From: Phycisphaeraceae bacterium
GTDB lineage: Bacteria; Planctomycetota; Phycisphaerae; Phycisphaerales; Phycisphaeraceae
Direction of reading: 5' to 3'
Length of the DNA stretch: 64,000 bases
Assembly: GCA_963674705.1 (NCBI GenBank)
Contig: OY771506.1
Coordinates: forward strand, 768,001 to 832,000
Shown: piece by piece, positions 3,140 through 55,297 of the stretch
Layout: the number at the start of each line of letters is the position of its first letter
How positions within the stretch are numbered: position 1 is the first letter of the stretch
Program-made: the position numbers and the translations under genes
Notes under the pieces: generated by a model
The model's database searches: none
What the model was told of the DNA's origin: nothing
The model's input: only the letters and a program-made list of their open reading frames with translations

Positions 3140-4054
3140 TCAGGGGTCCTGCCCTTCATCGATATCGCACGATGTGTTGAGTCTTAGGTAGTGGGGATAA
3201 ATCTCGGGTAGAACCTGTGGGCCGATGTAGTCCGGCAGGTTCATATAGATACCGCGGATCACGTGAGCCAGTTCGTTGCCCTGCTCTTCGAGGGCTTTTA
3301 ACGATGCGTCGGCCGTATCGTTTTCGTAATAGGTGTAATAAATCCCCATGAACGCATACGGGCGGAAGTCGTAGATATGTTTGGTGTTAACCAGGTAGAC
3401 ATCGTCTCTCAGGATCGGGTTGATGTAGCTGTGGACACCACGGTGCTCCTGCTCCATCCAATACACGAAGGTCCAGTCACCGTCGATGACGGTGTGTTGA
3501 TGTTTAACAGGCCCGGCAAATTGCTTGTAGAGCGGTATGTTGGTCACGTGCTCGGTCGAGAGTTCGATCCGCCACCACGCGGGGGTGTGTTCGTGCAGAT
3601 CGCGCACGTACTGTTCGACATCGGACGGGTTGTAGCCGTCAACGGGATACGCTTGCGCTTCTTCATAGGTCTGATTTGCGATCAGATCGACCAACTCATC
3701 GACTTCCACCCGTCCCGCACGATCGGCGACATCCAGTTCATCCGCATTGTCGGCAAAGAACATCTCGTTGAGCAGCCCACCCGAGCCGAAGTCGGCCCGC
3801 CGGTGTTTGTTGAACTCCACGCCGGGTGCGGGCGCGTACTGCGCCTGTCGCCAGGCCTCGTATCGATCCGTCACGCTCGACCGCTGTAAACGCGTCATCG
3901 CCAGGCCGAAGAAAAACAGCAGCGCCAGGACGATGAAAATCAACGGCAAGACAAGCACGGTCTCCGTCATCGCCGAACCGCGGTAGCGCGGAGATATCAG
4001 CGTTGAGCGTGTGCTTTGCTGATCTTGATTGAATGCCTTCATCATGCTTCTCAT
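3140..4054 (-). CDS. TadE-like pseudopilin/minor pilin
   Basis: Prepilin-type N-terminus RYRG|SAMTETVLVLPLIFIVLALLFFFG (Gly at -1, Glu at +5, hydrophobic helix). Confidence 0.7.
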   Translation of the reverse strand: MRSMMKAFNQDQQSTRSTLISPRYRGSAMTETVLVLPLIFIVLALLFFFGLAMTRLQRSSVTDRYEAWRQAQYAPAPGVEFNKHRRADFGSGGLLNEMFFADNADELDVADRAGRVEVDELVDLIANQTYEEAQAYPVDGYNPSDVEQYVRDLHEHTPAWWRIELSTEHVTNIPLYKQFAGPVKHQHTVIDGDWTFVYWMEQEHRGVHSYINPILRDDVYLVNTKHIYDFRPYAFMGIYYTYYENDTADASLKALEEQGNELAHVIRGIYMNLPDYIGPQVLPEIYPHYLRLNTSCDIDEGQDP

Positions 4055-4082
4055 GGCTTCTGTGATCTCAATAGTTCAATCC

Positions 4083-6143
4083 TCAATGGTTCAGCATCAC
4101 CGGTGCTAATGGTTCAACGATACGCAGGTTCTCCGCCATTTCGCTGATCACCTGCGATTCCAGGTCCGACGATATGTTCGGCCCGATGTTCACCGCATCT
4201 TCAGCCTTTTGCACCCAATCGTCGAAGTGGTCCACATCCACCGGCTCGAGGTTTGCCTGCCAGGATTGCGTCCACAAGTCCCACGAGTGGTTGTTGAAGA
4301 CGTATGCCTGCGCGATGGCGGTGTTGTAGGGGTAAGGCTTATCGCCTTGGAAGCGCGTGGGCCAGAACTTGGGACTATTCGACTGCCTTGCTACGCCGAG
4401 GAACGTGAGATACTCCAGACTGGCGCCGTAGTTATTCGGGGGTAATAGCTGATGGTCGATGTCGATCGGCGCGGGCGCATCATCCGCATTCTTGTCAAAA
4501 CCTTCCCAGGGATTGGTTACTTCGATCTGCTCGCCGACGTTGACGCCCACGAGCATGTAGTCGACCTGCCAATACACTTCCTGGGCCACATAGACCCGGG
4601 TACCATCACTACTCGTGCTCAGCTTGGGAGCCAGACCGATGGAAGGATCGCCGCCAAGGTCCGGCCCTTCGGGGTCTGTCTCGTAAACCGCGGACATCCG
4701 CCAGATGTGGTCATCGACTTTCTTCCACGTGGGCCCACTGACAATGCTTGCTGGGTCAACCGAATAAGGAGGGTGCGTAGAAGCATCGGGAACAGCAGAG
4801 CCACCACGGAAATCCACGCGCGGAGAGCGTCGGTAAGGAATGTCGACATAGTCCCAGGTAATCCCCTGCCGCTGCGGCAATCCCGGATCATCCTTGATAC
4901 GGCTCTTGATCTCCACGATGACGTACATCACCTCGGCGATCTCCGTGGAGTCATACTTTCGAGCATATTCGCTGTTGCGATCGGACGACCGTTCGTCATC
5001 GTAGTCGATGTCGATTTCCCACTTGGTGTCTTGAACTGTTCGGCTTGTGAGATCAGACCAGAGGTAACTCGATTTGCATGAGTAGATGTTACCCAAGTGG
5101 TCGCGAAGCCGACTGAATTCCCGCCGCGGTACGGTACGCCAGAGCATCACATGCTCCGGACCAAAGACACGGTATTCCTCGGGCTCCCTTCCCAACCTTG
5201 CTCGTCCCATCTGCGGTGGTAAACGGCTGGTCGTCGGAATACTGCCCGGGTCTTCATCGATCCGGTCCGTGGTGCGCCAACCGAACAGCGCATCCCATGG
5301 CCCGCGGATGGTTTCCTCGTTATCGATCTGTCCGAATCCGATCCCGGTACCATCATAATTCAGCCGTCGATCCGAACCGGGGAGCAGGCCGAACCTCATG
5401 GGCCGTTCGTAATCCGCAAACTTGCCGCGTTGCCAGGGAATGTATGGCGCAGCGGGCAGAAGCAGCCCGGCGGTGGCTTCGCCTTGCTGCCCCAGATTCG
5501 CCTGCACCGATTGGATGGCTGCGGTTTGTGCTGCTTCTGCCAGCGTCGACATCACCGCCTGGCTGTGTGCGTCCATCGAACGCATCGCCTGATGCATCTT
5601 GCCCATATTTCCGGATGGCGCCTGGTAGTGCGTCATTTCGGGGATCAGGTTCGGCTGGTTGCGGAATAGTTCATCCAGCTCGCGCATGTACTGCCGTTCT
5701 GCGATGACGCTGTCAGAATTACTCTCATCGATCATTTCACGCAGCTTGCGTGCGAACCAGACGTCCGTCACCCCCGCGCGGAGCTGACCGCTGACCGCCT
5801 GCGCCAGCGCATCAACATCACCGAGCTCAGACTCGGTCTCGTCGGTGATCGACAGGTCCACCGCCAGAGGCACGCCATCGAGATAACTGACCGCGGCGAT
5901 CAGCCGGGCCGTCTCGACGTTGTTCATCGCGACCGTGTTCATGCTGCGCGCCACCTGGCTGGCGCCGCCGATCGCCGCCGAATCCGCGGCGTGCTGGGTG
6001 ACGACACGGCTTTGCACGCTCGTGCCGACGTTGAAGACGTAGAAGAGCAGCGACGCGATCAGGATGATCGCCAGGAGTGTGATTACCATCACCACGCCCC
6101 CGCTGCGCACGCGAGACGGTGCTAAATTCAGGGCGTTATCCAT
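4083..6143 (-). CDS. TadG-like (Tad domain) large pseudopilin/tip adhesin candidate
   Basis: RSG|GVVMVITLL hydrophobic helix followed by VG..VQSR..TQHAADSAAIGGA, the Tad/TadG N-terminal signature; long soluble C-terminal region. Confidence 0.75.
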   Translation of the reverse strand: MDNALNLAPSRVRSGGVVMVITLLAIILIASLLFYVFNVGTSVQSRVVTQHAADSAAIGGASQVARSMNTVAMNNVETARLIAAVSYLDGVPLAVDLSITDETESELGDVDALAQAVSGQLRAGVTDVWFARKLREMIDESNSDSVIAERQYMRELDELFRNQPNLIPEMTHYQAPSGNMGKMHQAMRSMDAHSQAVMSTLAEAAQTAAIQSVQANLGQQGEATAGLLLPAAPYIPWQRGKFADYERPMRFGLLPGSDRRLNYDGTGIGFGQIDNEETIRGPWDALFGWRTTDRIDEDPGSIPTTSRLPPQMGRARLGREPEEYRVFGPEHVMLWRTVPRREFSRLRDHLGNIYSCKSSYLWSDLTSRTVQDTKWEIDIDYDDERSSDRNSEYARKYDSTEIAEVMYVIVEIKSRIKDDPGLPQRQGITWDYVDIPYRRSPRVDFRGGSAVPDASTHPPYSVDPASIVSGPTWKKVDDHIWRMSAVYETDPEGPDLGGDPSIGLAPKLSTSSDGTRVYVAQEVYWQVDYMLVGVNVGEQIEVTNPWEGFDKNADDAPAPIDIDHQLLPPNNYGASLEYLTFLGVARQSNSPKFWPTRFQGDKPYPYNTAIAQAYVFNNHSWDLWTQSWQANLEPVDVDHFDDWVQKAEDAVNIGPNISSDLESQVISEMAENLRIVEPLAPVMLNH

Positions 6144-8730
6144 CCTCGCCTCCCTCTCTGTCCTTACTTTCGGCCAAACCCTTGGTGACCTGCTCTCGCA
6201 ATGCAGTCAATTCATCGGTAACCCGGATCTTCGCCGCGGTTGACAATATCCCACGCGCGCTTGGCCATTGTTCGTTGGCGATATACCCACGGGCCTGGGC
6301 GAGCAGATGATTGAACTCGGTGTCGTCCAGCCTCTGCTCGATCTCTTCGGTTTTCATCACATCGCGGGCGCTGCGAAACGCCTGCTTGGCCTGGGCGTAT
6401 CGGCCTTGCTCGGCATAGCCGTCGCCCTGCTTGAGAAGCTCGCGGTAACGCACGTGGCGGGCGTGGCGTTCCATCGCTTCGGCGACCGCCGGGCTGTCCG
6501 GCTGCAATTCCTTCGCTTCGTCCAGCACTTCGCCGGCCCGTTCGAGTTGACCTTGTGCTATCAACTGCTCGGCCTGCGCCAATGCCGCCCCGGCCTCAAC
6601 ACGATTCAGCGCCGACTGGACTTGCTCATCAGGCCCGCTCTGTAACGCGGCGCGGTAGTGGCTGGCCGCTTGCAAAAGATCGCCGGAGGCTTCTGCTCGT
6701 TTACCGGCCTCGATATACGAACGCTTTTCGATTGTCACGTTCATGCGCGCAAGCCAACCGCGAGCCTCGGCGTTATTCGGATCAAACGCCAATGCATTGG
6801 TGAACGCCGCCTGGGCCCCCGCTTCATCGCCGGATTCGACCAACGCTCGCCCTTTTGTCATCGCCGCCTTCGACTTGAGTATCTGAATGCGTGACGAAAG
6901 TGAGTCGTCTTCCATGAGCGCAATCGCCTCTTCGAATGACTGGATCGCCTTGTCGTAATCCGCGCTGCGCTCCGCCGATTCACCGCCGGCCACCAGTTCA
7001 CGGAAAGACTTCAGCACCGTCAGCGACTCGATCTTCTCGTCGATGCGCGGATTTTGCAGACGCCGTTTCACGCCGGACAGGTGGTTGATCGCGCCGGACA
7101 CGTTGTTTTGTTCGACCATTTCATCTGCAGTTGCCAACGCCTCATCAACCTGTTCGCGTTCAAGCTCCGCATCGATCCGAACCTGGAAGTCCAGAAGCGC
7201 CTTGGATTCATTTTCCGTCAGTTCGTTGCGCTGTGCTTCCTTGATAACGTTGCGTGCCTGTGCAAATTCCCCGGCTTCAAGATGGGTCTGCACCTCGGCA
7301 ACCGTATTGTCAAACGCCTGGCGTCGATCGACCTCATCGCTTAACGCTTTGACGGCTTCACGGCTGGCGGGGCCCGCCTCGGCCAGCATTTCGAGGTCCG
7401 TGGTCAGGCTGCGCGCTTCGTCGTACCGGTTTTCCGACAGCGCGATCTGCGCCTTGGCAATCAGTGCGCCGACTTTGCCGTGTAAAGCAAGCTCATCCCC
7501 CGGCTCGGGCCAGGCAGTAGCCTGTGCTTCATACAGTGAGATCGCATCCGCGAAGCGCCCGGCCCTGTAGGCGACGTCCGCATCTGCAAGCGATGACGCC
7601 GCGAGCGAACGCTTGTGTTCGTATGCGTTCTTGTTGATCGTGCTGACGGTAAACCACACGCCAAGTGAGAGCACAACCACGACCGCGGCCGCGATCCCGA
7701 TGACCATCGGTTTCTTGCTGGGCTGCGGCAGTTCGGTCGTATCGCCCGGGCCGGTCGCTTTGATTTGTGCGCCGGAAGGTGTGAATGCATCGGGGGAGGC
7801 TTCTGCTTTGACGATGGCGTCCTGCCCGAAGTGGCGCTGGATGGCTTCAAGCAACTGCTCGCCCGATGCGATACGCTTGCTGCGGTCTTTGGCCATCATC
7901 CTGGAAATCAGGTCGCTTAAACGCACGGGTACGCGGGGATTCAGTTCGTGCAGGTGCGGCGCCTGGACGCGCGCGTTGGTGTGCCACTTCATCCAGCGCA
8001 TCGCAGAGTTGCGCTTATCGCCGATCACTGCATTGAATACATGCTCGAACGCACCACGCCCGGCAAGCATCTCGTAGGCGATGATCCCAAGCGCGTAGAT
8101 GTCCGACCGTGCATCCCCCGCCACGCCGTGGAATAATTCCGGCGCCATGTACCGGGCCGCGTCCGGGCTAAGCGCCTCTTGCTCGGCGATCAAACCCGTG
8201 ACACCCGCATCAACGACCTGAACACCGCCGCTCAAGCGCAGCACAATGTTGCTCGGTCGCAAGCCGCCGTGGATCATCCCGAGCTTGTGCAGTTGGCTTA
8301 GCACCTTGGCGGTGCTGTGTACGATCCGCAGGCCGCGCACAAGATCGAACGGGTCGGGCCGGCTGTTCAAAAGCTGTTCGATACTCGCGCCGCCGGCATA
8401 ATCGGACACCAGGAACGCCCCGCGGGGATCGTCGATCAATTCCTTCAAGAGCACGACCCGCCGCCCGGACTCACCGAGTTTGCCCTGCTTGTCGATTTCT
8501 TTCTGGCAACGCTCTAAAAACGAACGCTCACGCGACATCGGCGAACCCGGGATCAACTCGCGCACCATCGCGTCAGCACCCGTTTGCGTATGCTGTGCTC
8601 GCCAGACAACGCACGTCTCAGCCGCACTGAGCAGACTGACGATCTGGTAAGACCCCACGGTATCGCCGACCTTCAGGACCGGTTGCACGTCGGAGGCAGC
8701 ATCTTGTGGTATTTCGTTGGCGTCTGTCAT
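6136..8730 (-). CDS. Hanks-type Ser/Thr pseudokinase + single TM helix + long TPR-like extracytoplasmic region
   Basis: Kinase fold motifs YMAPE, RSDIYALG..YEMLAG are present but catalytic motifs are degenerate; TM MVIGIAAAVVVVLSLGVWF; TPR-like repeats such as AQAAFTNALAFDPNNAEAR. Confidence 0.85.
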   Translation of the reverse strand: MTDANEIPQDAASDVQPVLKVGDTVGSYQIVSLLSAAETCVVWRAQHTQTGADAMVRELIPGSPMSRERSFLERCQKEIDKQGKLGESGRRVVLLKELIDDPRGAFLVSDYAGGASIEQLLNSRPDPFDLVRGLRIVHSTAKVLSQLHKLGMIHGGLRPSNIVLRLSGGVQVVDAGVTGLIAEQEALSPDAARYMAPELFHGVAGDARSDIYALGIIAYEMLAGRGAFEHVFNAVIGDKRNSAMRWMKWHTNARVQAPHLHELNPRVPVRLSDLISRMMAKDRSKRIASGEQLLEAIQRHFGQDAIVKAEASPDAFTPSGAQIKATGPGDTTELPQPSKKPMVIGIAAAVVVVLSLGVWFTVSTINKNAYEHKRSLAASSLADADVAYRAGRFADAISLYEAQATAWPEPGDELALHGKVGALIAKAQIALSENRYDEARSLTTDLEMLAEAGPASREAVKALSDEVDRRQAFDNTVAEVQTHLEAGEFAQARNVIKEAQRNELTENESKALLDFQVRIDAELEREQVDEALATADEMVEQNNVSGAINHLSGVKRRLQNPRIDEKIESLTVLKSFRELVAGGESAERSADYDKAIQSFEEAIALMEDDSLSSRIQILKSKAAMTKGRALVESGDEAGAQAAFTNALAFDPNNAEARGWLARMNVTIEKRSYIEAGKRAEASGDLLQAASHYRAALQSGPDEQVQSALNRVEAGAALAQAEQLIAQGQLERAGEVLDEAKELQPDSPAVAEAMERHARHVRYRELLKQGDGYAEQGRYAQAKQAFRSARDVMKTEEIEQRLDDTEFNHLLAQARGYIANEQWPSARGILSTAAKIRVTDELTALREQVTKGLAESKDREGGEDG

Positions 8731-8754
8731 GTGGCTCGGTCGTTCACTCTTCCG

Positions 8755-9570
8755 TTAGTTATGAGGTATGCGCGGCAGCGAGGGCGGATCGGGCAATTCG
8801 GGGTCGAGCCCTTCGTTGGTCAACGTGTAATGCGCGGTGACCAGCGCGTATCGTCCACGGCCGTCGGTATGTTCGCCATCCGCGAATAATGCCCCCACAT
8901 AGGGGACGGATAAATTAAACCGGTGTTCAACACGGACCGTGATCGGATCACGCGGACCAAAGACGTGCCCTTCCGATCCGATGTCGTAGAACTCGACCGC
9001 CCCGTCGTCGTCATCGACTTCCACGATGTAGACATCGGTGTTGTCAGCCGCGTAATGCAACCGCTCTGCTGCCAGTGTCTCGACCCATCTTGGCGTATCC
9101 TGCCCATAGTCAGAGAAGTAGCTTTCAAGCCCGGCCACGTATGCCTCGGGGTCCACATCTTCATTGCTATCCGTCCGCTTGCCGCAGACCGGTGCGACCG
9201 CCAGGTACGCCGCGGAGCGGATCGCGTCGAACTTAGTCCGGCCCTTCACAGGCATGATCGCGTTGCGGCCCTCTTCGCCAAGGTCGGAATAATCCTGCGA
9301 GATATAGACGATCGCCGAACGTGTCGCCGCGAATGCGGAATAATGCACGTACTGGTTGCCCACCATCAGCAGCGTCGACTGAAGCAGGATGAGCACGAGG
9401 AACAGGACGATCGGCAGGACCATGCAGAACTCGATCGTGGCGGTGCCTGATTCGGGGCGCAACAGGGCGCGGTAAAGGCGCTTCGCGATCGAACCGGTGA
9501 GGGCCGATGCGATAAAACCACCCCTTGCGGGCGGGCCCATGATTACTTGGCCGTCAGCTTGGCTGGGCAT
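8755..9570 (-). CDS. TadE-like pseudopilin
   Basis: ESG|TATIEFCMVLPIVLFLVLILLQ...YSAFAATRSA TadE signature; start placed at ATG 9570 after AAAGGAG RBS. Confidence 0.8.
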   Translation of the reverse strand: MPSQADGQVIMGPPARGGFIASALTGSIAKRLYRALLRPESGTATIEFCMVLPIVLFLVLILLQSTLLMVGNQYVHYSAFAATRSAIVYISQDYSDLGEEGRNAIMPVKGRTKFDAIRSAAYLAVAPVCGKRTDSNEDVDPEAYVAGLESYFSDYGQDTPRWVETLAAERLHYAADNTDVYIVEVDDDDGAVEFYDIGSEGHVFGPRDPITVRVEHRFNLSVPYVGALFADGEHTDGRGRYALVTAHYTLTNEGLDPELPDPPSLPRIPHN

Positions 9571-9802: not shown

Positions 9803-11455
9803 ATGCAGACAACGTCGTATGAACTGCGGGGGAACGTGGTGGATATCGTCCGCCGAAGGGTTTTTCCCGGGATCGTGGTTATAGAAGATGGCCGGATCAG
9901 CTCGGTCACCGATGATACCGAGGCCGGGCCGCAGACCTGCCAGACCTACCTCATGCCCGGGTTCGTCGATGCCCATATCCACGTCGAGAGTTCGATGCTC
10001 ACGCCCTGCCAGTTCGCCCGCCAGGCGGTGGTCCACGGGACGGTCGCGACGATAAGCGACCCGCACGAGATCGCGAACGTGCTGGGGATCGAAGGTGTAC
10101 GGTTCATGCTGGACGATGCGGCTAATACGCCTTTGAAGATCATGTTCGGCGCGCCGTCGTGCGTGCCGGCGACGGCGTTCGAGTCGGCCGGCGCGACCAT
10201 GGATGCCGCGGCGGTGGCGAAGCTGCTGGACGATCCGCGGATCGGATACTTAAGCGAGGTGATGAACTTCCCGGGCGTGCTGATGGGCGATCGCGAGATG
10301 ATCGCGAAGTTGGACGCCGCGAAACAGCGCGGTAAGCCGATCGACGGCCATGCCCCGGGCTTGCGTGGCGAGCAGGCTGCTGCTTACGTCCGGGCAGGGA
10401 TCAGCACCGATCACGAATGCTATACCAAGGATGAAGCGCTCGACAAACTGGCCGCCGGCGCGTTTATCCAGATCCGAGAAGGCTCAGCAGCTCGCAACTT
10501 CGAGGCGCTGTACACGCTGATCGATGAGTTCCCCGACAAGGTGATGCTTTGCAGTGATGACAAGCATCCCGATGAACTCGTAAACGGCCACATCAACGAG
10601 CTTGCCCGCCGGGCCGTTGCCAAGGGGATGGATCCGATGAACGTGATACGGGCCGGCTGCGCGAATCCGGTGCATCACTATGGTCTGGATGTGGGCTTGC
10701 TACAGCCGGGCGATCCGGCAGACCTGATCGAGGTTGACAGCCTCGAGTCTTTCAATGTGCTGCGTACGTTCATCGATGGCACTTGCGTTGCGGAGCGGGG
10801 TGGGGCTCTACTGCCCGAGCCCGCCGCTATCGAGCCGATCAACCAGTTCAAAGCGGAGCCGGTCAAACCGAGCGACCTGAAACTGAAGAACGGCAGCGGT
10901 AAAGCTCGCGTCATCGGTGCAATGGATGGCCAACTCGTCACCGAATGCCGTATCCTTGATGTTAAACAATCCGCAGACCAGATCATCGCCGATCCTGAAA
11001 AGGATATCCTCAAGATCGCTGTGGTGAACCGCTATTCCAAGTCCGCCCCGGCGGTCGGCCTGATCCAGGGGTTCGGCCTGAAGCGGGGGGCGATCGCGTC
11101 CAGTGTCGCGCATGATTCGCACAACGTCATCGCTGTCGGCACGAACGATCACGACCTTGCCAACGCTATCAACCTCGTCATCGATAACACAGGCGGGCTC
11201 AGCGCGGTCGACGGCTCTGACAAGCAGGTCCTGCCCCTGCCGATCGCCGGACTCATGGCGACGGGGTCGTGCGGTGAAGTCGCCGATGCCTACGCGAAAC
11301 TGGACCGGACCACAAAAGACATGGGCTCGTCCTTGCGTGCACCGTACATGACACTTTCGTTCATGGCGCTACTGGTCATCCCCAGCCTGAAGCTAAGCGA
11401 CAAGGGGCTCTTCGACGGCGAGAACTTCGAATTCACCACGGTGCATGTGGAATAG
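9803..11455 (+). CDS. ade: Adenine deaminase
   Basis: PGFVDAHIHVESS, DPHEIANV, DGHAPG, TDHEC, SSVAHDSHN. Confidence 0.95.
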   Translation: MQTTSYELRGNVVDIVRRRVFPGIVVIEDGRISSVTDDTEAGPQTCQTYLMPGFVDAHIHVESSMLTPCQFARQAVVHGTVATISDPHEIANVLGIEGVRFMLDDAANTPLKIMFGAPSCVPATAFESAGATMDAAAVAKLLDDPRIGYLSEVMNFPGVLMGDREMIAKLDAAKQRGKPIDGHAPGLRGEQAAAYVRAGISTDHECYTKDEALDKLAAGAFIQIREGSAARNFEALYTLIDEFPDKVMLCSDDKHPDELVNGHINELARRAVAKGMDPMNVIRAGCANPVHHYGLDVGLLQPGDPADLIEVDSLESFNVLRTFIDGTCVAERGGALLPEPAAIEPINQFKAEPVKPSDLKLKNGSGKARVIGAMDGQLVTECRILDVKQSADQIIADPEKDILKIAVVNRYSKSAPAVGLIQGFGLKRGAIASSVAHDSHNVIAVGTNDHDLANAINLVIDNTGGLSAVDGSDKQVLPLPIAGLMATGSCGEVADAYAKLDRTTKDMGSSLRAPYMTLSFMALLVIPSLKLSDKGLFDGENFEFTTVHVE

Positions 11456-11569
11456 CACATGAATGCCTAATGTACAGGCACAAACTTCCACAATTGATCC
11501 ATGGGTTTTTATGGGTCCGGGGCTATAATGCGGGATCAGGCCCAATGTATCCGAAACAATAGATCAGAC

Positions 11570-13045
11570 ATGCTCAAATCCGCTTCCACATCACGCGACC
11601 ACCTGGTGCTGTTTATCAACGGCGAGCGCCATGATGTAGCCGGTGGGGATGCTTTCGCGACGCTATCTGATTACCTGCGTATTCAATCCGGTATGGTCGG
11701 TACGAAGATCGTCTGTTCGGAAGGCGACTGCGGCGCGTGCAGTGTGTTGGTCGGCAAAGTGGATCAAGCAACCGGCCGATTGACGTATCGCGTGATCGAT
11801 TCGTGCATCCAGTTCATGTACCAGCTCGACCGCACGCATATCGTCACCGTCGAAGGGCTCAAACGCAACGGCCTGCTCAGCCCGATCCAGGACGCGATGG
11901 TCAAACATCACGGCTCGCAGTGCGGCTTCTGCACGCCGGGCTTCGTCACGACGATGACGGGCCTGCTTGAAGGTGATGGGCACGACAGGCAATCGCCGCT
12001 ATCACGCGAGGAGTTATCGCACGGCCTATCCGGGAACCTTTGTCGATGCACCGGGTATCTGCAGATCCTCGATGCGGGTTGTGCTGTTGATCCGGGCAAA
12101 ACTGCGCGGCTGTGTGAACTGTATCCCGATGAGCCTATCGCCGAACATTTCGCGGAGCTTGATCAGGATGATGTCCTGGTCCGTGATGCCGAGCGTGTGG
12201 TGGCTATTCCGTCCAGTCTCGACGTTGCGGTTGCTTTCAAAGCTGATCGCCCCCAATGCACGGTCGTGGCCGGTGCTACCGATATCGGCGTACAACACAA
12301 CAAGGGCAAGATCGCTCCGAGCGAAGTGCTTTGCCTGGCGAATGTCGGCGAGATTCAATCGATCGAACGCAACGATGGCCGGCTGACTATCGGAGCGGGG
12401 GCCACATGGTCGCAGATTGAGCGGGAAGTTAAGGAGCTTGTTCCGCCGTTTCATGACATCCTTACGGTGTTCGGCTCGCCACAGATCCGCAATAGCGGGA
12501 CGATCGGCGGTAATATCGCCAACGCCAGCCCGATCGCGGATTCCTTGCCGTTCCTGTTCGTGACTGAAGCCGAATTAGAACTTGTCGGCCCGGCCGGTTC
12601 GCGTCGCGTGAATATCAATGATTTTTATTTGGGGTACAAAAAGTTCGACCTTAAAGCGGACGAACTGATCGCGCGTGTGCATGTTCCGTTGCCAGCCGAT
12701 TCACAAACGCTGAAGCTCTACAAGGTATCTCGACGACGTGACCTGGATATCTCCACGTTTACCGCCGCGATATTGATGGAACAGGACGACTCGACCGCCG
12801 TTATCAAGACTATCCGCATCGCGATGGGCGGCGTAGCACCGGTTGTGCTGCGATTGCCGAAGACAGAAGCGTTTTTGGCCGGCAAACCACCGGCAGAAGA
12901 AGTCTTCCAAGAAGCAGGCCGGCTCGCCCGCACGGAGGTTACCCCAATCTCCGATGTGCGCGGCAGCGCCGACTTCCGCCTGCAATTAGCGGAAAACATC
13001 CTGAGCAAGTTCTATTACGATTGTGTTCAACCGGTAACGAAATAA
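11570..13045 (+). CDS. xdhA: Xanthine dehydrogenase small subunit (2Fe-2S/FAD)
   Basis: CSEGDCGAC, QCGFCTPG, GNLCRCTGY, GTIGGNIANASP; start uncertain (11501, 11528 or 11570). Confidence 0.93.
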   Translation: MLKSASTSRDHLVLFINGERHDVAGGDAFATLSDYLRIQSGMVGTKIVCSEGDCGACSVLVGKVDQATGRLTYRVIDSCIQFMYQLDRTHIVTVEGLKRNGLLSPIQDAMVKHHGSQCGFCTPGFVTTMTGLLEGDGHDRQSPLSREELSHGLSGNLCRCTGYLQILDAGCAVDPGKTARLCELYPDEPIAEHFAELDQDDVLVRDAERVVAIPSSLDVAVAFKADRPQCTVVAGATDIGVQHNKGKIAPSEVLCLANVGEIQSIERNDGRLTIGAGATWSQIEREVKELVPPFHDILTVFGSPQIRNSGTIGGNIANASPIADSLPFLFVTEAELELVGPAGSRRVNINDFYLGYKKFDLKADELIARVHVPLPADSQTLKLYKVSRRRDLDISTFTAAILMEQDDSTAVIKTIRIAMGGVAPVVLRLPKTEAFLAGKPPAEEVFQEAGRLARTEVTPISDVRGSADFRLQLAENILSKFYYDCVQPVTK

Positions 13046-13066
13046 GGACAAACGTTCAGAAGCATC

Positions 13067-15400
13067 ATGCCCAACGTAGGCCAATCCATCCCGCACGACT
13101 CAGGCCCCGGTCACGTCACCGGTGAAGCGCTGTACATCGACGACCTCACGCCGATGGAGGGTGAGTTGTTTGTCGAGTTCGTCGGCTCGCCTGTCGCTTG
13201 TGGCACAGTAAAAACCGTCGACGTTTCCACTGCTAAACAAACACCCGGCGTCGTCGGCATCTTCACCTACAAAGACATCCTCGGCCCAAACCACTTCGGC
13301 GCGATCTTCCACGATGAACCTTTTCTCGTTGAAGACCACATCGATTACGTCGGCCAACCGATCGTACTGATCGCCGCCACCTCGCGTGAAGCCGCCCGCG
13401 AGGCTCGCAAGGCGGTCACCGTTGCGGTCGAAACCGAAACACCTGTTCTCGATATCGATACCGCGATCGAAAAGAATCAATTCCTCGGCCCGGAGCGTCG
13501 TATCGAACGAGGCGACTTCGATAACGCCTGGCAGAACGCCGAAAACACCCTCGAAGGCACGTTTGAATCCAACGGCCAGGAACAGTTCTACCTTGAAAGC
13601 CAGGCGGCAATCGCATATCCCGGCGAGCAAGGCCAACTCACCGTCGAATCCTCCACGCAGAACCCGACGGAAACGCAGGCTGTCATCGCGGAGGTGTTAG
13701 GTCTCGGTATGCACGAGGTGGTCGTACGCTGCAAGCGGATGGGCGGAGCCTTTGGCGGCAAGGAATCACAAGCCGCGATCCCTGCGCTGATGGCGGCGCT
13801 TGTCACACAAAAAACAGGTAAACCCGCGCGCGTCGTCTACACCAAAGACGACGACATGAAGATCACCGGCAAACGCCACCCTTACAAGACGTGGTACAAG
13901 GTCGGCTTCGATTCTGATGGCAAACTCGACGCCATCCAGCTCGACTTTTACTCCGATGGCGGCGCGTTTGCTGATCTATCGACCGGCATCATGGAGCGCA
14001 CGCTTCTTCATGCGGATAACGCGTATTACCTGCCGAACATCAAGATCAAGGGCCGGATCTGCAAGACGAACATCCCGCCGAATACGGCGTTCCGTGGGTT
14101 CGGCGGGCCGCAGGCGATCGCGGTGATCGAGAATATCATCCAGGAAGTCGCCGCGGCGCTGGGCAAAGATGCTTACGAAGTCCGCAAGCTAAACTGCTAC
14201 AGCGAAGCTCCGCACAACACCACGCCCTATGGCCAAGAAGTCAAGAACAACCTCCTGCCGCAGATCTTCGACCAGCTTGCAGAGAGCAGCGACTATAAAG
14301 CACGGCTCGCTGAGGTCGAAGCGTTTAACAAGCAATCGCCGACGCATCTCAAAGGCATTGCCATGACGGCGGTGAAGTTCGGCATCTCCTTCACCACCAA
14401 GTTCCTCAACCAGGGCAACGCGCTGGTGCATGTTTACACCGACGGCACGATCCAGGTTTCCACCGGCGCAACGGAGATGGGCCAGGGTGTCAACACCAAG
14501 ATACGCCAGATCGTCGCCGATGAGTTCGGCCTGTCGATCGAGCGTGTGATGATGATGACGACCTCGACGGAGAAAAATATCAACACCTCCCCCACCGCCG
14601 CCAGCGCGGGGACGGACCTCAACGGCGCCGCGGCCGTAAATGCATGTGCGACAATCAAGAATCGCATGGCCGATTTTGCGGCCGAGTTGTTCACCGAATC
14701 CAACAAAAACCTCGGGCCAAGTCCTGAAGATATCCGCTTCGAAGACGGCTTCGTCTTTGACCGACGCGCAACTGACAACCGCATACCGTTCGGGCAGTTC
14801 ACCAACCAGGCTCGCATGGCTCGCGTCGACCTGGGCGCACGTGGGTTCTACTCAACACCCGGCATCGACTTCGATCGGGAGGCCGGCAAAGGCAATCCAT
14901 TCTTCTACTTCACCACCGGCGCTGCGGTCGCTGAAGTACTCATCGACCGCTTCACGGGCGACCTGCGTGTGACCGGCATCGACATGCTCATGGACATCGG
15001 CCGCATGATCAACCCCGGTATCGATCAAGGCCAAGTCATCGGCGGGTTCGTCCAGGGCATGGGCTGGTGTACGACCGAAAACCTCGTCTATAACGATGAT
15101 GGCGAACTGCTCAGCTACTCGCCGACAACATACAAGATCCCCAACATCACCGACATACCGGAGCGGTTCAACATCGCGTTTATGGATAACAACGCCAACA
15201 CGAAGAACATCCGAAGCTCCAAGGCAGTCGGCGAACCGCCGTTAATGTTGGGCATCGCTGCGTGGGCGGCTGCGAAGCACGCGCTGGGGTGTGTAGCCGG
15301 GAAAAACAAAGTCCCGCTAAAACTTCCGGCGACGAATGAAGAAGTGTTGATGTGTTTGACGAAGATAAAGCAAACCGAACAACACACAATCAACAAGTAA
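13067..15400 (+). CDS. xdhB: Xanthine dehydrogenase molybdopterin-binding subunit
   Basis: HVTGEALYIDD, MGGAFGGKE, AFRGFGGPQ, TEMGQG, SKAVGEPP. Confidence 0.95.
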   Translation: MPNVGQSIPHDSGPGHVTGEALYIDDLTPMEGELFVEFVGSPVACGTVKTVDVSTAKQTPGVVGIFTYKDILGPNHFGAIFHDEPFLVEDHIDYVGQPIVLIAATSREAAREARKAVTVAVETETPVLDIDTAIEKNQFLGPERRIERGDFDNAWQNAENTLEGTFESNGQEQFYLESQAAIAYPGEQGQLTVESSTQNPTETQAVIAEVLGLGMHEVVVRCKRMGGAFGGKESQAAIPALMAALVTQKTGKPARVVYTKDDDMKITGKRHPYKTWYKVGFDSDGKLDAIQLDFYSDGGAFADLSTGIMERTLLHADNAYYLPNIKIKGRICKTNIPPNTAFRGFGGPQAIAVIENIIQEVAAALGKDAYEVRKLNCYSEAPHNTTPYGQEVKNNLLPQIFDQLAESSDYKARLAEVEAFNKQSPTHLKGIAMTAVKFGISFTTKFLNQGNALVHVYTDGTIQVSTGATEMGQGVNTKIRQIVADEFGLSIERVMMMTTSTEKNINTSPTAASAGTDLNGAAAVNACATIKNRMADFAAELFTESNKNLGPSPEDIRFEDGFVFDRRATDNRIPFGQFTNQARMARVDLGARGFYSTPGIDFDREAGKGNPFFYFTTGAAVAEVLIDRFTGDLRVTGIDMLMDIGRMINPGIDQGQVIGGFVQGMGWCTTENLVYNDDGELLSYSPTTYKIPNITDIPERFNIAFMDNNANTKNIRSSKAVGEPPLMLGIAAWAAAKHALGCVAGKNKVPLKLPATNEEVLMCLTKIKQTEQHTINK

Positions 15401-15425
15401 ATCTTCCAGAATATAGATTATGTTC

Positions 15426-15556
15426 CTCCCTTCTCCCCCCGGGAGACCCCGGAATAGGCAAGGATGAGGGCCGGGTTCATTTTGTAACCCGATTCAACAC
15501 CGGCCACGCAAACACATTCGGCCCTCACCCCGGCCCTCTCCCGAGGGGAGAGGGAG
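15426..15556. repeat. Inverted doublet of CCCTCTCCC/GGGAGAGGG palindromic repeat (family B)
   Basis: 15426-15472 is a degenerate copy with an insertion; 15520-15556 GGCCCTCACCCCGGCCCTCTCCCGAGGGGAGAGGGAG is in the opposite orientation. Confidence 0.8.
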
Positions 15557-15607
15557 TAAACCGCCGTATTCACATACTCGTCAATAAACAACTAAAATAC
15601 CCGCATC

Positions 15608-16405
15608 ATGCAAACCACAGAACATATGCAGCGTTACATGGAACTCGCTTCGGCCGGGACGCCGTTTGTCAGCGTCACGATGGTTCAAGCCATTGGCAGC
15701 ACGCCACAGGACGCGGGCAGCAAGATGCTTGTCACAGCCGACGGCCTGTTTCACGGCACGGTCGGCGGCGGACAGGTCGAAGCCAAGGCCATCGAACACG
15801 CGCAAGCGATGCTCGAAAATAAAACCGGCACGCAAGGCCACACCGATCTCGTCGAATGGAACCTGAAAAAAGACGTCGGCATGACCTGCGGCGGCACGGT
15901 CACGCTTTACTTCGAGTCGGTCAATCACAACGTCTGGCCGATCGTCATCTTCGGCGCGGGCCACGTCACCCAGGCGCTGGTCAACCTGTTAACCACACTG
16001 CCCTGCCGAGTCACCTGCATCGACCCGCGCGGAGACTGGCTCGACAAACTGCCCAAGGCGGCCAACATCCAGACAATCCGGACAGACGATCCACCCGCGC
16101 AGGTCGCAACGCTACCCGACGGCGCATTTGTCATCAGCATGACGCGTGGCCATGTCACTGACCTGCCTGTTTTGATCGAAGCCTTCAAGCAAAAACGCAA
16201 GTTCCCCTTCCTCGGCGTGATCGGCAGCAAGTCCAAGGCCGCGATCTTAAGACGCGAACTCACCGAGGCCGGCATCCCCGAAGATCAACAGACGTTCCAA
16301 TGCCCGCTCGGTCTGCCAATCGGCACGAATCATCCCGGTGAAATCGCGATCAGTATCGCGGCGCAGTTGCTGGAAGTGAGAGATAGATTGGCCGCAAAGA
16401 AGTGA
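15608..16405 (+). CDS. xdhC: Xanthine dehydrogenase accessory (Moco insertion) protein
   Basis: GSTPQDAGSKM, GTVGGG, GMTCGG, FGAGHV, GVIGSKSK, PGEIAISIAAQL. Confidence 0.93.
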   Translation: MQTTEHMQRYMELASAGTPFVSVTMVQAIGSTPQDAGSKMLVTADGLFHGTVGGGQVEAKAIEHAQAMLENKTGTQGHTDLVEWNLKKDVGMTCGGTVTLYFESVNHNVWPIVIFGAGHVTQALVNLLTTLPCRVTCIDPRGDWLDKLPKAANIQTIRTDDPPAQVATLPDGAFVISMTRGHVTDLPVLIEAFKQKRKFPFLGVIGSKSKAAILRRELTEAGIPEDQQTFQCPLGLPIGTNHPGEIAISIAAQLLEVRDRLAAKK

Positions 16406-16462
16406 TTTTTAGCCGCGAATAAACGCTAATAGACGCGAATCAAGAAACTGAATCTGCTCCGG

Positions 16463-16499
16463 TCCCCTCTCCCCCCGGGAGAGGGCTAGGGTGAGGGCC
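16463..16499 (+). repeat. Family B palindromic repeat copy
   Basis: TCCCCTCTCCCCCCGGGAGAGGGCTAGGGTGAGGGCC. Confidence 0.85.
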
Positions 16500-16560
16500 C
16501 GTATCTGCTTAATCATCAGAACTTCAAATAGCACAACAGGCACCAGCCACGAACCACAAC

Positions 16561-16585
16561 AAAAAACCCGACCAAAATGGTCGGG
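16561..16585 (-). terminator. Intrinsic terminator for guaD
   Basis: Minus strand CCCGACCA-TTT-TGGTCGGG followed by TTTTTT. Confidence 0.7.
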
Positions 16586-16639
16586 CTATATAGAATCACT
16601 CTTCTCATTCGCGTCTATTAGCGTTCATTTGCGGCATAA

Positions 16640-17896
16640 CTATTCCTGGCTGTAAACCACTTCCCCATTCACCACTGTTGCTTTCACCCATCGGTCATCG
16701 AAGGCAAACATCACCATACCGAGTGGATTGTGCGCTTCCTGCCAGGGGATGTCGGGGTGGATCACCACCAGGTCCGCCTCCATTGCTTCCTGGATGCGTC
16801 CCGTGTTAGGCCAACCCATCGCATCGGCGTTGCCCGTTGTGATCTGCCACCACGCCTCGGTGGCGCTGGGCACATCTTCCGTCTCGGCGCCCGCGTAGAA
16901 CGTCGCTTCCATCATCGCCTTTGCGACGCGGATCATACTGCGTTCGTAACCGCCGCCGATGTCACTGCCCAATGACAACGTGATGCCTGCATCGCGTAAA
17001 CGCTTGCGATCCATCGTGCCGGAACGCAAAAACGAATTGGCGGTCGGGCAGTGTGCCGCGATGCTGCCTGTCTCGGCAAGCACGGCACGTTCACTATCTG
17101 ATAAGTAAATGCAATGCCCCAGTATCGTGCGCGGCCCGAGCAGGCCGGCCTTTTGGTACACGCTCGTGTAATCGGGGCCGCCGTGCAGTCTGGCGACGGC
17201 TTCCAACTCCGGCTTCATCTCCGCCAAGTGTGTCTGCACATAGGCATCGTGCTCGCGCGCCAGGTCCCCCGCCGCTTTGAGAAGACCTTCGCTGCACGTG
17301 ATCGCAAACCTTGGCGTCACGGCTGTACTCACACGGTTGCCCGTGGCGCGCTGCCCCGGTTCACTCGGCCAAGCGTTCAATAGCGCTTCCGTTTCAGCCA
17401 GACATGCATCCGCGTCGCGCAGCATCGAATCCGGTGCTTGCTGATCGATCAAGACCTGCCCGACCAACGCACGCAAACCCCAGCGGGCACATGCCTGAAG
17501 CGCCCGCCGCGTGGCTTCGTGGTGCACCGTTGCGTAGGCGGCAAAACTCGTCGTGCCGACCGAAACCAGTTGCCCGATGACGCGCTCGGTCATCTCGGCT
17601 GCGTAATCCGCATCTGCCCACTTCGCTTCATTGGGGAACGTGACCTGCTCGAGCCAGTCCAATAACGACATGCCATGCGCACCGATCAGGTCGAACTGTG
17701 GCAGGTGCATATGTGTGTCAATGAAGCCAGGCGAGATCAAGCAGTCCTCACCCCCAAGATCAAATGACGCCGGCATCCCGCTTTCATGAACCTCAACGAT
17801 GCGGCCGCCGTCGGTGCGGATCCAACCGGTTGCGATCCTGACACCGGGTCGCAACCGGGCCGGGTCTGGAAGCAGTAATTTGCCGGCAAGTATCAA
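16640..17896 (-). CDS. guaD: Guanine deaminase
   Basis: PGFIDTHMHLPQ, TPRFAITCS, VQTHLAE, AHCP, GSDIGGG; next to xdh; TTG start with AGGAG RBS. Confidence 0.88.
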   Translation of the reverse strand: MILAGKLLLPDPARLRPGVRIATGWIRTDGGRIVEVHESGMPASFDLGGEDCLISPGFIDTHMHLPQFDLIGAHGMSLLDWLEQVTFPNEAKWADADYAAEMTERVIGQLVSVGTTSFAAYATVHHEATRRALQACARWGLRALVGQVLIDQQAPDSMLRDADACLAETEALLNAWPSEPGQRATGNRVSTAVTPRFAITCSEGLLKAAGDLAREHDAYVQTHLAEMKPELEAVARLHGGPDYTSVYQKAGLLGPRTILGHCIYLSDSERAVLAETGSIAAHCPTANSFLRSGTMDRKRLRDAGITLSLGSDIGGGYERSMIRVAKAMMEATFYAGAETEDVPSATEAWWQITTGNADAMGWPNTGRIQEAMEADLVVIHPDIPWQEAHNPLGMVMFAFDDRWVKATVVNGEVVYSQE

Positions 17897-37717: not shown

Positions 37718-39793
37718 TCACGCAGATCGTCTGCGTGATAATATTGTCATACCAAATCCACACATACAAATAGTTGCTGGTTCAGGAACCATTTCGAGAA
37801 CTTGTGTGGGCGGAGCTGATCCACTGTTCCAGTTTTGCAGCAGCACATCGAGATCGTCGAGGCCGATGTAGCCGTCGCCGGAGATGTCGCCGGAAGATAG
37901 ATCGGCTAAGCCGACGTTTTGGTTCCAATTCAGCAATAGTGTGTCGAGATCGTCGAGGCTGACGAAGCCGTCGGCGTTGAGGTCGCCGGGGACGTAGTCC
38001 CAGTTGAGCGTGACCATGACGGCGTTGGATGTGTAGGCGACGTCAATGAGGCCTTCGTACATGGCGAGGCCGGTGATATGTTCGAACTGGCCGGTGAGTG
38101 TTCCTTGTAGGGATTCAATTACCGTGTAAGTTCCGGAGATCACAGGACCGACAGCCTGCAGGTCCATGATCGTCCCGGTCAAACTGATATCGATGTTTCC
38201 GGATACGTTGACCTGATCGCTCGTGTTGGCTTCGCCGCCGATCTCGATCCCAACGGTGCCGCCATTGATTTCGTAGTCGCCAAAAATGTCGGTTAATCCG
38301 ATCCCGTCCGCCGGCGCAAAGGTTCCGCCGTTCTGCACGAATGGAGCTTTGAGGTTGATGCTACCCACGCCGCGAAGTTCACCAGATAAGAAACTGAAGT
38401 TGGCAATACCCCCGCCGGCCACCAGCCGCCCACCGTGCAAACTTAAAGAGCCACCGGTTACATTCAAAGTGCCCTCAGAATAGTAGCCCTTACCAATAAA
38501 GACATCCCCAAAAACCTCAACATGGCTCAGCGGACCGATCCCAACACTCCCGACACCTGACTCACCCACGACCAAATCATCCCCGCTGGAGATGCTCGAA
38601 CCCGCTCCGCTGACAACCAACTCACCGCGCGAGCCCGGGTCCTGCCCGAGTGTGATGCCGTAAAGATGCGTTTCGAGGGTCGCGCCATTCTCAACGAGTA
38701 ATTGCCCCTGCCCCGCCTCGCCCACTACCAACTCTCTTGTATCAATCCACCGTGATTCGGCACCACTGAGGGTCACCTGGCCAACCGATTCTTGCTCATA
38801 ACCGATACGCGCGCCGTGGCAGTAAAGCAGGCTCCCGCCTGACACGTTTATGTGGGCTTCACCCGAGTAGCCGACCATCAGAATCCCCCCGCTGATATTC
38901 AGTGCGCTGTGGTCACTGACATTCACGATGCCGATCGCGTCGGCGTAGTAACCGACATAGCCCATCCTTTGGTTTACCTCGGCGTGATCGGTCACATCCA
39001 ACGTCCCGACGCCGGCGTTGCCCACGTAAAGATCGGATGCCCCGTTACCTCCCCATAACGAGCCCTCGCCGGTGACCAAGGCATACCCGACCGCCGAGTA
39101 GCCATACCCAACGTAGGCTCCCGCACCACAGGTCACGACACCCCCCGCTTCGATCGTTAAGCTGCCGTTGCCGAATCGGCCGGCCTGCATTTCACCTGTC
39201 GCGGTCCAGGTAGAGCCGGGGCCCGACACGAGAACGCTTGAGGTCGATGACTTTAGTCCAGCAATCCATCCGTTGTTGCTTGTGAGCAGCCCGCTGTTTT
39301 CAACAGTCAGTGTTGATGGGCCTTCCTGCCCTACCAGAACCGTGTACAGCGTGTTGAGCCTGGACCCCGCACCCGACACGAGAACGTTGCTTGATGAGCC
39401 TTCAAATGCGGAAAAGACCACCCCGCCGTAGCCGATGACACCGCCATCTAAAAGGTTTAATTCACCATGGCCGTAACGACCGACGGTCATCGCATATCGA
39501 TTAGCCCATGCGGCATCAGGCCCTGTGATCGTCACGATGCCGGTCGTCCCCGCATCCTTGCCGATCACACCGTGCGTGCTGGACACGTGACTGCTGCCAC
39601 TGACGGTCATCTGCCCGTCGCCCGCCGCACCCACTTCAAGGGGTTCGGACACCTCCCAGGGATCATCACCGGTATATGCAGGATCAAGATTGCCGGACAC
39701 ACTGATAGATGCGAAAGCCGAAGTGAAGGTATTCAGTAGTACGACACCACCCAAAAGTATTGCGGCAATCCGCCTCAATTCGTGAGCAATCAA
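37718..39793 (-). CDS. Beta-solenoid repeat exoprotein (T5SS/PEP-CTERM-associated repeats) with dockerin-like domain and PEP-CTERM
   Basis: Repeated VGxxGxGxLxV..IG..G.VxVSGxGSxW units; duplicated GDxxxDGxxxLDDLDxLLxNWN; VPEP-TM-RRR. Confidence 0.85.
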   Translation of the reverse strand: MIAHELRRIAAILLGGVVLLNTFTSAFASISVSGNLDPAYTGDDPWEVSEPLEVGAAGDGQMTVSGSSHVSSTHGVIGKDAGTTGIVTITGPDAAWANRYAMTVGRYGHGELNLLDGGVIGYGGVVFSAFEGSSSNVLVSGAGSRLNTLYTVLVGQEGPSTLTVENSGLLTSNNGWIAGLKSSTSSVLVSGPGSTWTATGEMQAGRFGNGSLTIEAGGVVTCGAGAYVGYGYSAVGYALVTGEGSLWGGNGASDLYVGNAGVGTLDVTDHAEVNQRMGYVGYYADAIGIVNVSDHSALNISGGILMVGYSGEAHINVSGGSLLYCHGARIGYEQESVGQVTLSGAESRWIDTRELVVGEAGQGQLLVENGATLETHLYGITLGQDPGSRGELVVSGAGSSISSGDDLVVGESGVGSVGIGPLSHVEVFGDVFIGKGYYSEGTLNVTGGSLSLHGGRLVAGGGIANFSFLSGELRGVGSINLKAPFVQNGGTFAPADGIGLTDIFGDYEINGGTVGIEIGGEANTSDQVNVSGNIDISLTGTIMDLQAVGPVISGTYTVIESLQGTLTGQFEHITGLAMYEGLIDVAYTSNAVMVTLNWDYVPGDLNADGFVSLDDLDTLLLNWNQNVGLADLSSGDISGDGYIGLDDLDVLLQNWNSGSAPPTQVLEMVPEPATICMCGFGMTILSRRRSA

Positions 39794-53104: not shown

Positions 53105-53776
53105 CTACCCAATCAACAACATCCCAGCGAAGAGGCATATCCAGACGATGTCGAGGAAGTGCCAGTACATCGTCATGTATTTAACGGGGCTGCAGGACTC
53201 GTGGTCGTAGCCGTGTCGCCAGGCCTTTTTGGTGATAAAGCCGAGAGGAATCATGCCACCGAGCAGGTGAAGTGCGTGTACTAAGATCAGAAAGAACATC
53301 ATGCCGTAGGGAAGCAGGCCGATGGTGGAGTCTTCACGGAGTTGATCCATGTAGGCAATATTCTGCTGCAGCAGCTTCCAGAGACTGGGTGTCTGGATGA
53401 CAAGGAACATCACCGCCAGCGCACAGGTGACGGCGAGGCATTGCCGGAAGATGGTTTGACGTTCGTAACGGATCGCGCGCAGCGCCAGGTGCATGCTGAA
53501 GCTGGACGCGAGGATGATGGTAGTTGATATCCAGAGGCCGACCGGGACCTGTATCGAACCGAGCGGCGGGCCGGCTTGTCGGACAATCTGGCCGGTAATC
53601 GCATCGATACCGGGCTCGAGCGTGACAAGGCGGATGACCAGGTAGCCGACCATCGACGAAGCAAAGAGGATGCCCAGTGCGATCAGGAACAGCCACATCC
53701 CGAGCGTACCGGTGCCGGGCGGCAGGTGCGAATGCCTTTTCTGGAAGATGCCGGTTGGTTGGTTGGCCTGGGTCAT
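53105..53776 (-). CDS. Cytochrome c oxidase subunit III-like protein (second copy)
   Basis: GMWLFL, HALHLLGG, YWHFLDIVW. Confidence 0.88.
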   Translation of the reverse strand: MTQANQPTGIFQKRHSHLPPGTGTLGMWLFLIALGILFASSMVGYLVIRLVTLEPGIDAITGQIVRQAGPPLGSIQVPVGLWISTTIILASSFSMHLALRAIRYERQTIFRQCLAVTCALAVMFLVIQTPSLWKLLQQNIAYMDQLREDSTIGLLPYGMMFFLILVHALHLLGGMIPLGFITKKAWRHGYDHESCSPVKYMTMYWHFLDIVWICLFAGMLLIG

Positions 53777-54235: not shown

Positions 54236-54270
54236 GGTTAATCTCGCATATCGCTAAGCTGCAAGCGGCT

Positions 54271-55290: not shown

Positions 55291-55297
55291 GGGTGGT

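Follow-up and report, generated by a model that had tools for sequence, protein, structure and literature searches.

The 64,000-nucleotide stretch of DNA analyzed here (hereafter the window; Phycisphaeraceae bacterium, assembly GCA_963674705.1, contig OY771506.1, positions 768,001 to 832,000) carries a four-gene cassette encoding three minor pilins of the Tad type and a membrane protein in which a degenerate Hanks-kinase domain is joined, via a transmembrane (TM) helix, to a tetratricopeptide-repeat (TPR) ectodomain. We find that this cassette is the tip-pilin half of the single, split Tad system of its source genome (G000; one contig, C1, of 5.54 Mb, 96.6% complete), and that its dead kinase is a derived duplicate, maintained by purifying selection, of an intact kinase encoded next to the Tad motor 2.6 Mb away. 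Both kinases bear a candidate phosphothreonine site just before the membrane, and the core locus encodes two FHA proteins that might read it. We propose that pilus assembly is controlled by a chain running from the intact kinase through its dead twin and an FHA protein to the motor, in which each phosphorylation and binding step is predicted, and to which we assign a probability of about 0.5.

A split Tad system with its tip pilins in the cassette

A preliminary description of this DNA, made from its letters alone, had placed four tightly linked genes here, and open reading frames (ORFs) together with Pfam searches recovered that layout with its gaps and overlap. Read on the minus strand, from position 9570 to position 3140 of the window, the four ORFs come in the order TadE, kinase-TM-TPR, TadG and TadE, with gaps of 24 nt and 28 nt and an 8-nt overlap between the kinase stop and the TadG start. 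The first gene (8755..9570), of the kind that precedes the kinase in full operons of relatives, encodes a 271-aa TadE-like minor pilin; its ATG start is preceded by an AAAGGAG ribosome-binding site, and it scores 24.5 bits against Pfam PF07811 (cut-off 22.9). It is followed by the 864-aa kinase-like protein (6136..8730), which matches Pkinase (E 1e-22) and several TPR families, and by a 686-aa TadG-like large minor pilin (4083..6143), the predicted tip backbone, which reaches 24.7 bits with the Tad family (PF13400; cut-off 22.3). The last gene (3140..4054), which follows TadG in full operons, specifies a 304-aa TadE-like pilin scoring 21.3 bits against PF07811 in the window scan, just below cut-off, and 25.8 bits in the genome search. 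The TadE and Tad profiles thus match the three pilins, as the preliminary description had expected. Class III signal peptides were recognized by eye, with predicted prepilin cleavage after G42 in the first TadE (followed by TATIE, with Glu+5), after G26 in the second (SAMTE, also Glu+5) and after G16 in TadG (VVMVI, without Glu+5). According to Pfam, the cassette is flanked by unrelated housekeeping genes (flavin reductase, radical SAM, MOSC; adenine deaminase), and its GC content of 0.57-0.60 agrees with that of the window. Since a promoter scan of the cassette gave 0 sigma-70 sites and terminators were at chance level, it is the gene spacing that argues for co-transcription.

No Flp, TadV, RcpC, TadA or TadB/C gene lies within the 64-kb window (that Flp, ATPase, TadB/C and peptidase genes are missing nearby had been noted before), and each is present elsewhere in G000, in a core tad locus (C1:3368351-3378894) 2.6 Mb from the cassette. 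This locus encodes a TadA without FHA domain (C1:3377785-3378894, 369 aa), two Flp-like pilins, TadV, a kinase-TM-TPR protein, RcpC, an FHA-TadA, TadB, TadC and an FHA-TM protein (C1:3368351-3369292). The FHA-TadA (C1:3371126-3372985, 619 aa) carries PF00498 (50 bits) at residues 23-88, which is the architecture of class III CpaF, that is, an N-terminal FHA domain on CpaF. For both TadA-type ATPases the best NCBIfam match is TIGR03819 (326 and 274 bits, both under the 373 cut-off), and both are far from PilB/GspE/PilT. The platform proteins TadB and TadC, encoded in tandem, each match PF00482 above cut-off, as TadV does Peptidase_A24; RcpC/CpaB was assigned by PF16976, and the two pilins, of 67-76 aa with a G/xxxxE cleavage site, match Flp_Fap and Flp1_like at E 1e-5 to 1e-4, under cut-off. 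The core kinase (C1:3373926-3376472, 848 aa) is the closest paralog of the window kinase (E 3e-134) and retains GxGG, VAIK, HLDLKPAN and DFG. When profiles from relatives were run against the six-frame genome, the pilin, peptidase, RcpC and platform genes were found in one copy each, and the only duplicated tad families were the two TadA and the two kinases. With these single copies and a paralogous kinase in each part, the cassette and the core locus therefore make one Tad set. The search for FHA genes suggested by the preliminary description was thus productive, and an FHA network does exist in this genome.

Nearly every complete locus of the family is flanked by two ATPases of the TadA type, one FHA-less and one FHA-bearing; a single bifunctional motor is the norm for Tad. 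Directly upstream of the core locus of G000, on the same strand, are genes for PilZ-domain and B12-binding-domain proteins (C1:3379024-3380276), possibly a c-di-GMP input.

As for the tip, an AlphaFold2 model of TadG (pLDDT 89, pTM 0.84) has an 83-residue N-terminal helix, and the protein consists of conserved N- and C-terminal parts with a variable middle. Its atlas neighbors are Tad-family clusters, and a sequence search of the Protein Data Bank gave no match. With the whole 686 aa as one query, Foldseek returned nothing at E<=0.001, and VIA-align gave no clear match, its best hits being inositol monophosphatases at Z 7.2, within background, with GspK at only Z 4.1 (rank 48). The presence of one large and two small minor pilins, together with the TadG model, fits a KilN/TadG-type heterotrimer, and by analogy with PMC12075869 the three pilins very probably form a heterotrimeric tip (statements on published systems, here and below, draw on parts of the cited papers).

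The tip cassette has a dead duplicate of an intact Tad kinase

Comparison with PknB, the nearest solved relative (E 7e-17), shows that in the kinase domain of the window protein (7816..8661, minus strand, as are the features below) the β3 Lys is replaced by Arg57, HRD by HGG (residues 154-156) and DFG by DAG (starting at D174). The family alignment places SAAETC at the Gly loop, and N161 and APE are kept; across the genus the DFG position reads DAG, EAG, DVG or DIG. With both the VAIK Lys and the catalytic Asp lost, this protein is a pseudokinase, predicted from its residues to be inactive, and the "dead kinase" of the preliminary description stands. The domain contains the family signature RWMKWHTN (7975..7998), which is kept in dead copies, in which W/K/W/H/N are invariant in 70 kinase sequences, and which we tentatively place in the αG region as a candidate partner-binding surface. 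C-terminal to the domain are a T331-x-x-L-P motif (7726..7740), a predicted phosphorylation and FHA-docking site; a single TM helix predicted by hydropathy (7645..7707, approximately residues 342-362); and a TPR ectodomain of ~495 aa (6139..7623; Pfam TPR families), predicted to be periplasmic. Planctomycete kinases share this kinase-TM-TPR topology, which is common in Planctomycetota and found in few Phycisphaerae (PMC11032199). The window kinase has no match to the EssB/YukC family in Pfam/NCBIfam at E<=1, and its context is tad rather than type VII secretion (T7SS).

To place the cassette among relatives (loci with L-numbers), the signature was used as a probe in the form RW[MV]KWHTN, and the best 80 of 321 matching loci were taken; strong matches in this set are mostly titled Phycisphaeraceae, with other Planctomycetota and three Anaerolineales-labelled metagenome-assembled genomes (MAGs). 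The kinase is found in 103/144 family genomes. TadG occurs in 29/61 related genomes, at one locus each; in 36 other family genomes of the TadG survey, the kinase is present in 22 of the 23 with TadG, while none of the 13 without TadG is among the kinase matches. Three layouts were seen. The first, in 35 distinct loci, is a full operon, cpaF-flp-flp-tadV-tadE-kinase-tadG-tadE-(small TM)-rcpC-FHA/cpaF-tadB-tadC-FHA/TM, which confirms the expected synteny of a kinase gene between tadE and tadG. The second, in 27 loci, is a core that has no tip genes and in which the kinase gene sits between tadV and rcpC, and the third consists of detached tip cassettes, with or without kinase, at least four being kinase-less (L039, L047, L048 and L050). 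The single full operon is the ancestral layout, which was later split. The idea that the cassette is an exchangeable tip module finds no support, given one copy of each tip gene in G000, one locus per genome in the survey, cassette flanks kept by genus-mates in 4/5 loci read and the tip cassettes that have no kinase; a horizontally acquired island was likewise rejected, on single copy, genome-like GC and shared flanks.

Several features of the relatives' loci are recorded here in their own right. In many operons, a 180-220 aa N-terminally anchored protein is encoded between tadE and rcpC (L038:7330-7896, L042:11338-11916, L049:11940-12479); it has no Pfam match above cut-off and was not found in G000. 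The three MAGs titled Anaerolineales (L133, L135 and L139) have the full operon, with kinases that group with those of L134 and L137, both labelled as planctomycetes; the titles may thus be wrong, or the operon may have been transferred. More distant Planctomycetota have FHA-TadA loci in which other kinases follow tadC-FHA (L056, L064, L066, L146 and L148), that of L056 with a similar juxtamembrane motif. In L064:7826-18803, a second FHA-TadA locus, two unassigned envelope-type genes precede rcpC and a different kinase follows the FHA gene.

The catalytic state of the family was read from 82 distinct kinases (87 found, six duplicates dropped, the window kinase added). An intact Hanks kinase is the family state (68/82), and Lys/Asp/Asn/Asp are kept in all 62 core-bearing loci (35 full operons and 27 cores). 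Every one of the 13 degenerate kinases is in a detached tip cassette. Intact kinases of the cassette type number five, of which three lie at contig edges, and the last two of the 82 could be assigned to no layout. In a FastTree phylogeny of 72 of the 82, from which 10 truncated sequences including two of the 13 degenerate ones had been dropped, 11 degenerate kinases and the intact cassette kinase of L079 form one clade (support 0.995), within which loss is stepwise, from intact L079 through L040 and L121, which have lost the Lys, to the fully dead copies of the window's genus. The core-only kinases form a separate clade (support 0.97). The intact cassette kinases of L126 and L131 fall outside the dead-copy clade and appear to derive from an operon broken at another point. 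The dead copy is thus a derived duplicate in one clade, produced by duplication and subsequent catalytic loss in the tip-linked copy, and the system is not, as first described, built around a pseudokinase. Two kinase copies are found in 16 of the 103 kinase-positive family genomes, among them all 11 of the genus.

Far from decaying, the dead domain is under purifying selection. Its mean identity is 74.5%, compared with 74.1% for the intact paralog, and pN is 0.16 against a pS of 0.53-0.56 (8 and 7 sequences). In one relative (L157:436-1932), the dead kinase and tadG are each in two frames, through a frameshift or an assembly error. That the dead copy is merely a redundant duplicate slowly decaying since the operon split is very improbable and largely refuted: the cassette copy has been lost outright in related lineages, motif loss is stepwise and the L157 gene is in two frames, but all 11 genomes of the genus keep the dead copy, its conservation equals that of its intact paralog with pN far below pS, and signature and docking motif are retained.

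A candidate phospho-docking site and its putative FHA readers

A T-x-x-[LIV]-P motif lies 8-15 residues before the TM helix in 70 of 75 family members, dead copies included, as compared to 6.5% of shuffled linkers, and the remaining five keep T-x-x-[ILV]. The threonine concerned is T331 of the window protein and T326 of the core kinase. Among 117 single-pass proteins of G000, only these two Tad kinases have the motif. Phosphothreonine followed by x-x-I/L/V is an FHA ligand. In the membrane FHA-TM protein of the core locus, the phosphothreonine pocket is intact, with GR in 31/31, SRxH in 30/31 and NG in 29/31 sequences, and binding is predicted from these residues. The FHA domain of TadA keeps GR and His, with Ser in only 8/45 and Asn in 5/45.

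Three published cases bear on such a site. FhaA is recruited by the juxtamembrane region of PknB (PMC6180346); the tail of the MviN pseudokinase is phosphorylated by PknB and recruits FhaA (PMC12599244); and EssC-FHA, where bound to the EssB pseudokinase, is without a phosphothreonine site (PMC11217815).

Proposed control of the motor and its alternatives

In the mechanism that we propose, the three pilins would form the tip of the Tad pilus of G000. A periplasmic cue sensed by the TPR domains would cluster the kinases, and the intact core kinase would then phosphorylate juxtamembrane threonines, its own T326 and T331 of its dead twin. The latter would act as a membrane scaffold, or dock, for the FHA proteins of the motor, the membrane FHA protein binding phosphothreonine and recruiting or licensing the FHA-TadA motor in place of the TadZ missing from the loci. 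Pilus assembly would in this way be switched on through phosphorylation. Phospho-control of the Tad motor is probable, and a dead copy serving as a trans-phosphorylated dock has, in our judgment, even odds. What the machine most probably brings about is adhesion triggered by contact, and not killing.

Several observations weigh against this mechanism. The RcpA secretin (PF13629) is absent from G000 and present in 6/61 family genomes, and without a secretin of this type, whether or how the filament crosses the outer membrane comes into question. No PP2C phosphatase was found in G000, leaving it without a candidate off-switch, and a PP2C partner was consequently rejected. The motor's FHA domain is degenerate, which makes direct phosphothreonine docking on TadA doubtful. 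In the kinase tree, the node joining the cassette and core clades has a support of 0.0. A single kinase suffices for the system in most relatives, so that at the family level the dead copy is dispensable. The 13 dead copies, which trace back to no more than two lineages within one clade, are not independent.

As regards TadZ/CpaE, none is encoded in the core locus, where every gene has another assignment; TIGR03815 gave four sub-cut-off matches in G000, none near tad genes, although this model is actinobacterial and makes a partial test. The five other secretins of G000 are all outside tad loci, and a shared pore might be provided by one of them, a stand-alone 1123-aa protein (C1:5204014-5207385) whose N-terminal region is long.

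A different role for the dead copy is that of an allosteric partner, activator or decoy, heterodimerizing with the intact kinase. This would be compatible with docking, and we consider it unlikely, if the best of the alternatives. The core kinase is non-RD (HLD/HQD/HMD) in 14/14 genomes with a degenerate cassette copy, while HRD is kept in 63 other intact kinases and in the core copy of genome G438, whose cassette copy is intact (the G061 core copy is outside this count). Kinases of the non-RD type bypass phosphorylation of the activation loop. As the 14 genomes stand for one or two events in evolution, this association is no more than a lead; a single shared origin of HLD in both copies was rejected, as the tree does not make them monophyletic. 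In two-copy genomes, moreover, both TPR regions stay near the ancestral profile (core 382 and tip 367 bits, nine sequences each, against a mean of 247 for single-copy core kinases), and the MviN pseudokinase is known to dimerize back-to-back (PMC12599244). On the other side, the two genes are 2.6 Mb apart and in different operons. The furthest-reaching version of our own mechanism, in which a receptor-kinase pair of its own gates the pilus, the intact partner being non-RD and the dead one a twin that arose from it and co-evolved with it, and the two heterodimerize via their TPR ectodomains and present phosphothreonine to the motor FHA, replacing TadZ, is possible but doubtful.

The preliminary description had made the dead kinase an adaptor dedicated to the tip, whose TPRs bind or chaperone the three pilins. 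The position of the gene between tadE and tadG in full operons, its move with the tips on duplication, its 8-nt overlap with tadG and one genus that has its single intact kinase with the tip genes (L131 and L179) all speak for this. The kinase nevertheless stays with the motor, not the tips, in 27 loci, the tip cassettes named above do without one, and tip-specific retention of the TPR region was rejected (367 vs 382 bits); because both TPR regions are near the ancestral profile, the tip copy has no special claim on ectodomain function. Such an adaptor is accordingly improbable.

The alternatives to phospho-controlled adhesion include a different purpose for the whole machine, namely contact killing of the Kil type. 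As in Kil of Myxococcus xanthus, there are an FHA-fused TadA ATPase, further FHA proteins, two kinds of Flp-type pilins and minor-pilin clusters apart from the motor (PMC8460266, PMC12075869). Kil, in turn, combines a single ATPase with a secretin, four tips and a needle-less type III secretion (T3SS*) partner, whereas here there are two ATPases and one tip set, the loci hold no short KilC secretin, and such a partner was rejected, as G000 has a single FHIPEP gene, taken as flagellar FlhA, and no second FlhA/SctV. No toxin-like fold was recognized in TadG by the fold searches, and FHA-TadA is also found in non-predators, as class III CpaF (PMC12019362). Killing is rated low because of the single tip set and the missing T3SS partner, and we regard it as quite improbable.

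Other features of the window and genome

Two further clusters of the window are ordinary. Positions 9803-17896 hold a purine-catabolism cluster with adenine deaminase (by Pfam) and what we take, by resemblance, to be xanthine dehydrogenase and guanine deaminase. Positions 53105-63765 presumably encode a cytochrome c oxidase/alternative complex III-like cluster. A 691-aa repeat-rich protein (37718-39793) appears to end in a dockerin-like repeat and a PEP-CTERM-like tail. Elsewhere in the genome, C1:960899-962638 (L054:5899-7638) encodes a stand-alone ATPase of the PilB/GspE type whose N-terminus bears an FHA domain, possibly a second filament motor under phospho-control, and with 18 T2SSE-family ATPases above cut-off, G000 has unusually many type IV filament motors.

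Discussion

By its ATPases, platform, pilins and RcpC, the system described here is a Tad system, one without the RcpA and TadZ features, and by the features examined it is neither Kil nor EssB. It shares Flp, TadV, TadA, TadB, TadC, RcpC, TadE and TadG with the canonical Tad/Flp (type IVc) pilus (PMC6668835), and differs from it in that the loci of this diderm are without an RcpA-type secretin and TadZ and have gained a kinase/FHA module. With class III CpaF Tad systems it has the N-terminal FHA domain on TadA/CpaF in common; the part of that paper used here mentions no cognate kinase (PMC12019362), whereas our loci lack TadZ and RcpA and have a dedicated membrane kinase, a membrane FHA protein and a second, FHA-less TadA. 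The authors of the Kil studies proposed an upstream phosphorylation cascade in which the kinase is unnamed (PMC8460266, PMC12075869); the word "kinase" has 0 occurrences in the main texts of these two papers, whose supplementary gene tables could list kinases.

The closest parallel for the predicted working of the Tad kinase pair is PknB - MviN - FhaA, in which an intact Hanks kinase is likewise found together with an FHA reader and with a dead kinase domain whose Thr is C-terminal or juxtamembrane (PMC12599244, PMC6180346). The MviN domain is part of a lipid II flippase and controls wall synthesis, whereas the pseudokinase described here, which has a TPR ectodomain and would serve a pilus, is a recent paralog of the very kinase predicted to act on it. 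A membrane pseudokinase or kinase is also paired with an FHA-bearing secretion ATPase in T7SSb (EssB/YukC with EssC-FHA) and in T7SSc/d (TscD/TsdD), and the phosphothreonine site, lost in EssC-FHA, is partly lost in the TadA FHA here (PMC11217815). T7SS is, however, a different machine, in which dead and intact kinases belong to different variants, while here both are in one cell. In the portion of a Bdellovibrio Tad preprint that we drew on, only neighboring TPR, FHA and histidine-kinase genes appear (10.64898/2026.07.08.737194), and the words pilus, TPR and Planctomyc are absent from the main text of a pseudokinase review (PMC12599244). In the main texts of open-access papers, we found no description of a Tad-encoded Hanks kinase or of a kinase/pseudokinase pair in such a locus. 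FHA-fused CpaF is already known; what is new is a dedicated kinase family, an intact/dead pair and a named, testable phospho-site.

In this family, kinase, candidate phospho-site (T331/T326) and intact-pocket reader are encoded in one operon, with the kinase in 103/144 genomes, and the model can therefore be tested with three purified domains. The system also prompts one to ask how the Tad pilus of a diderm gets out of the cell without RcpA, and it offers a natural series for the origin of a bacterial pseudokinase, from intact, through loss of the Lys, to fully dead, with a partner turning non-RD. If the pilus is indeed gated by a receptor-kinase pair, it would supply the kinase assumed necessary for FHA-bearing Tad motors such as Kil, and kinase/pseudokinase receptor pairs would have a counterpart in bacteria, seen in a series leading from one intact gene to an intact/dead pair.

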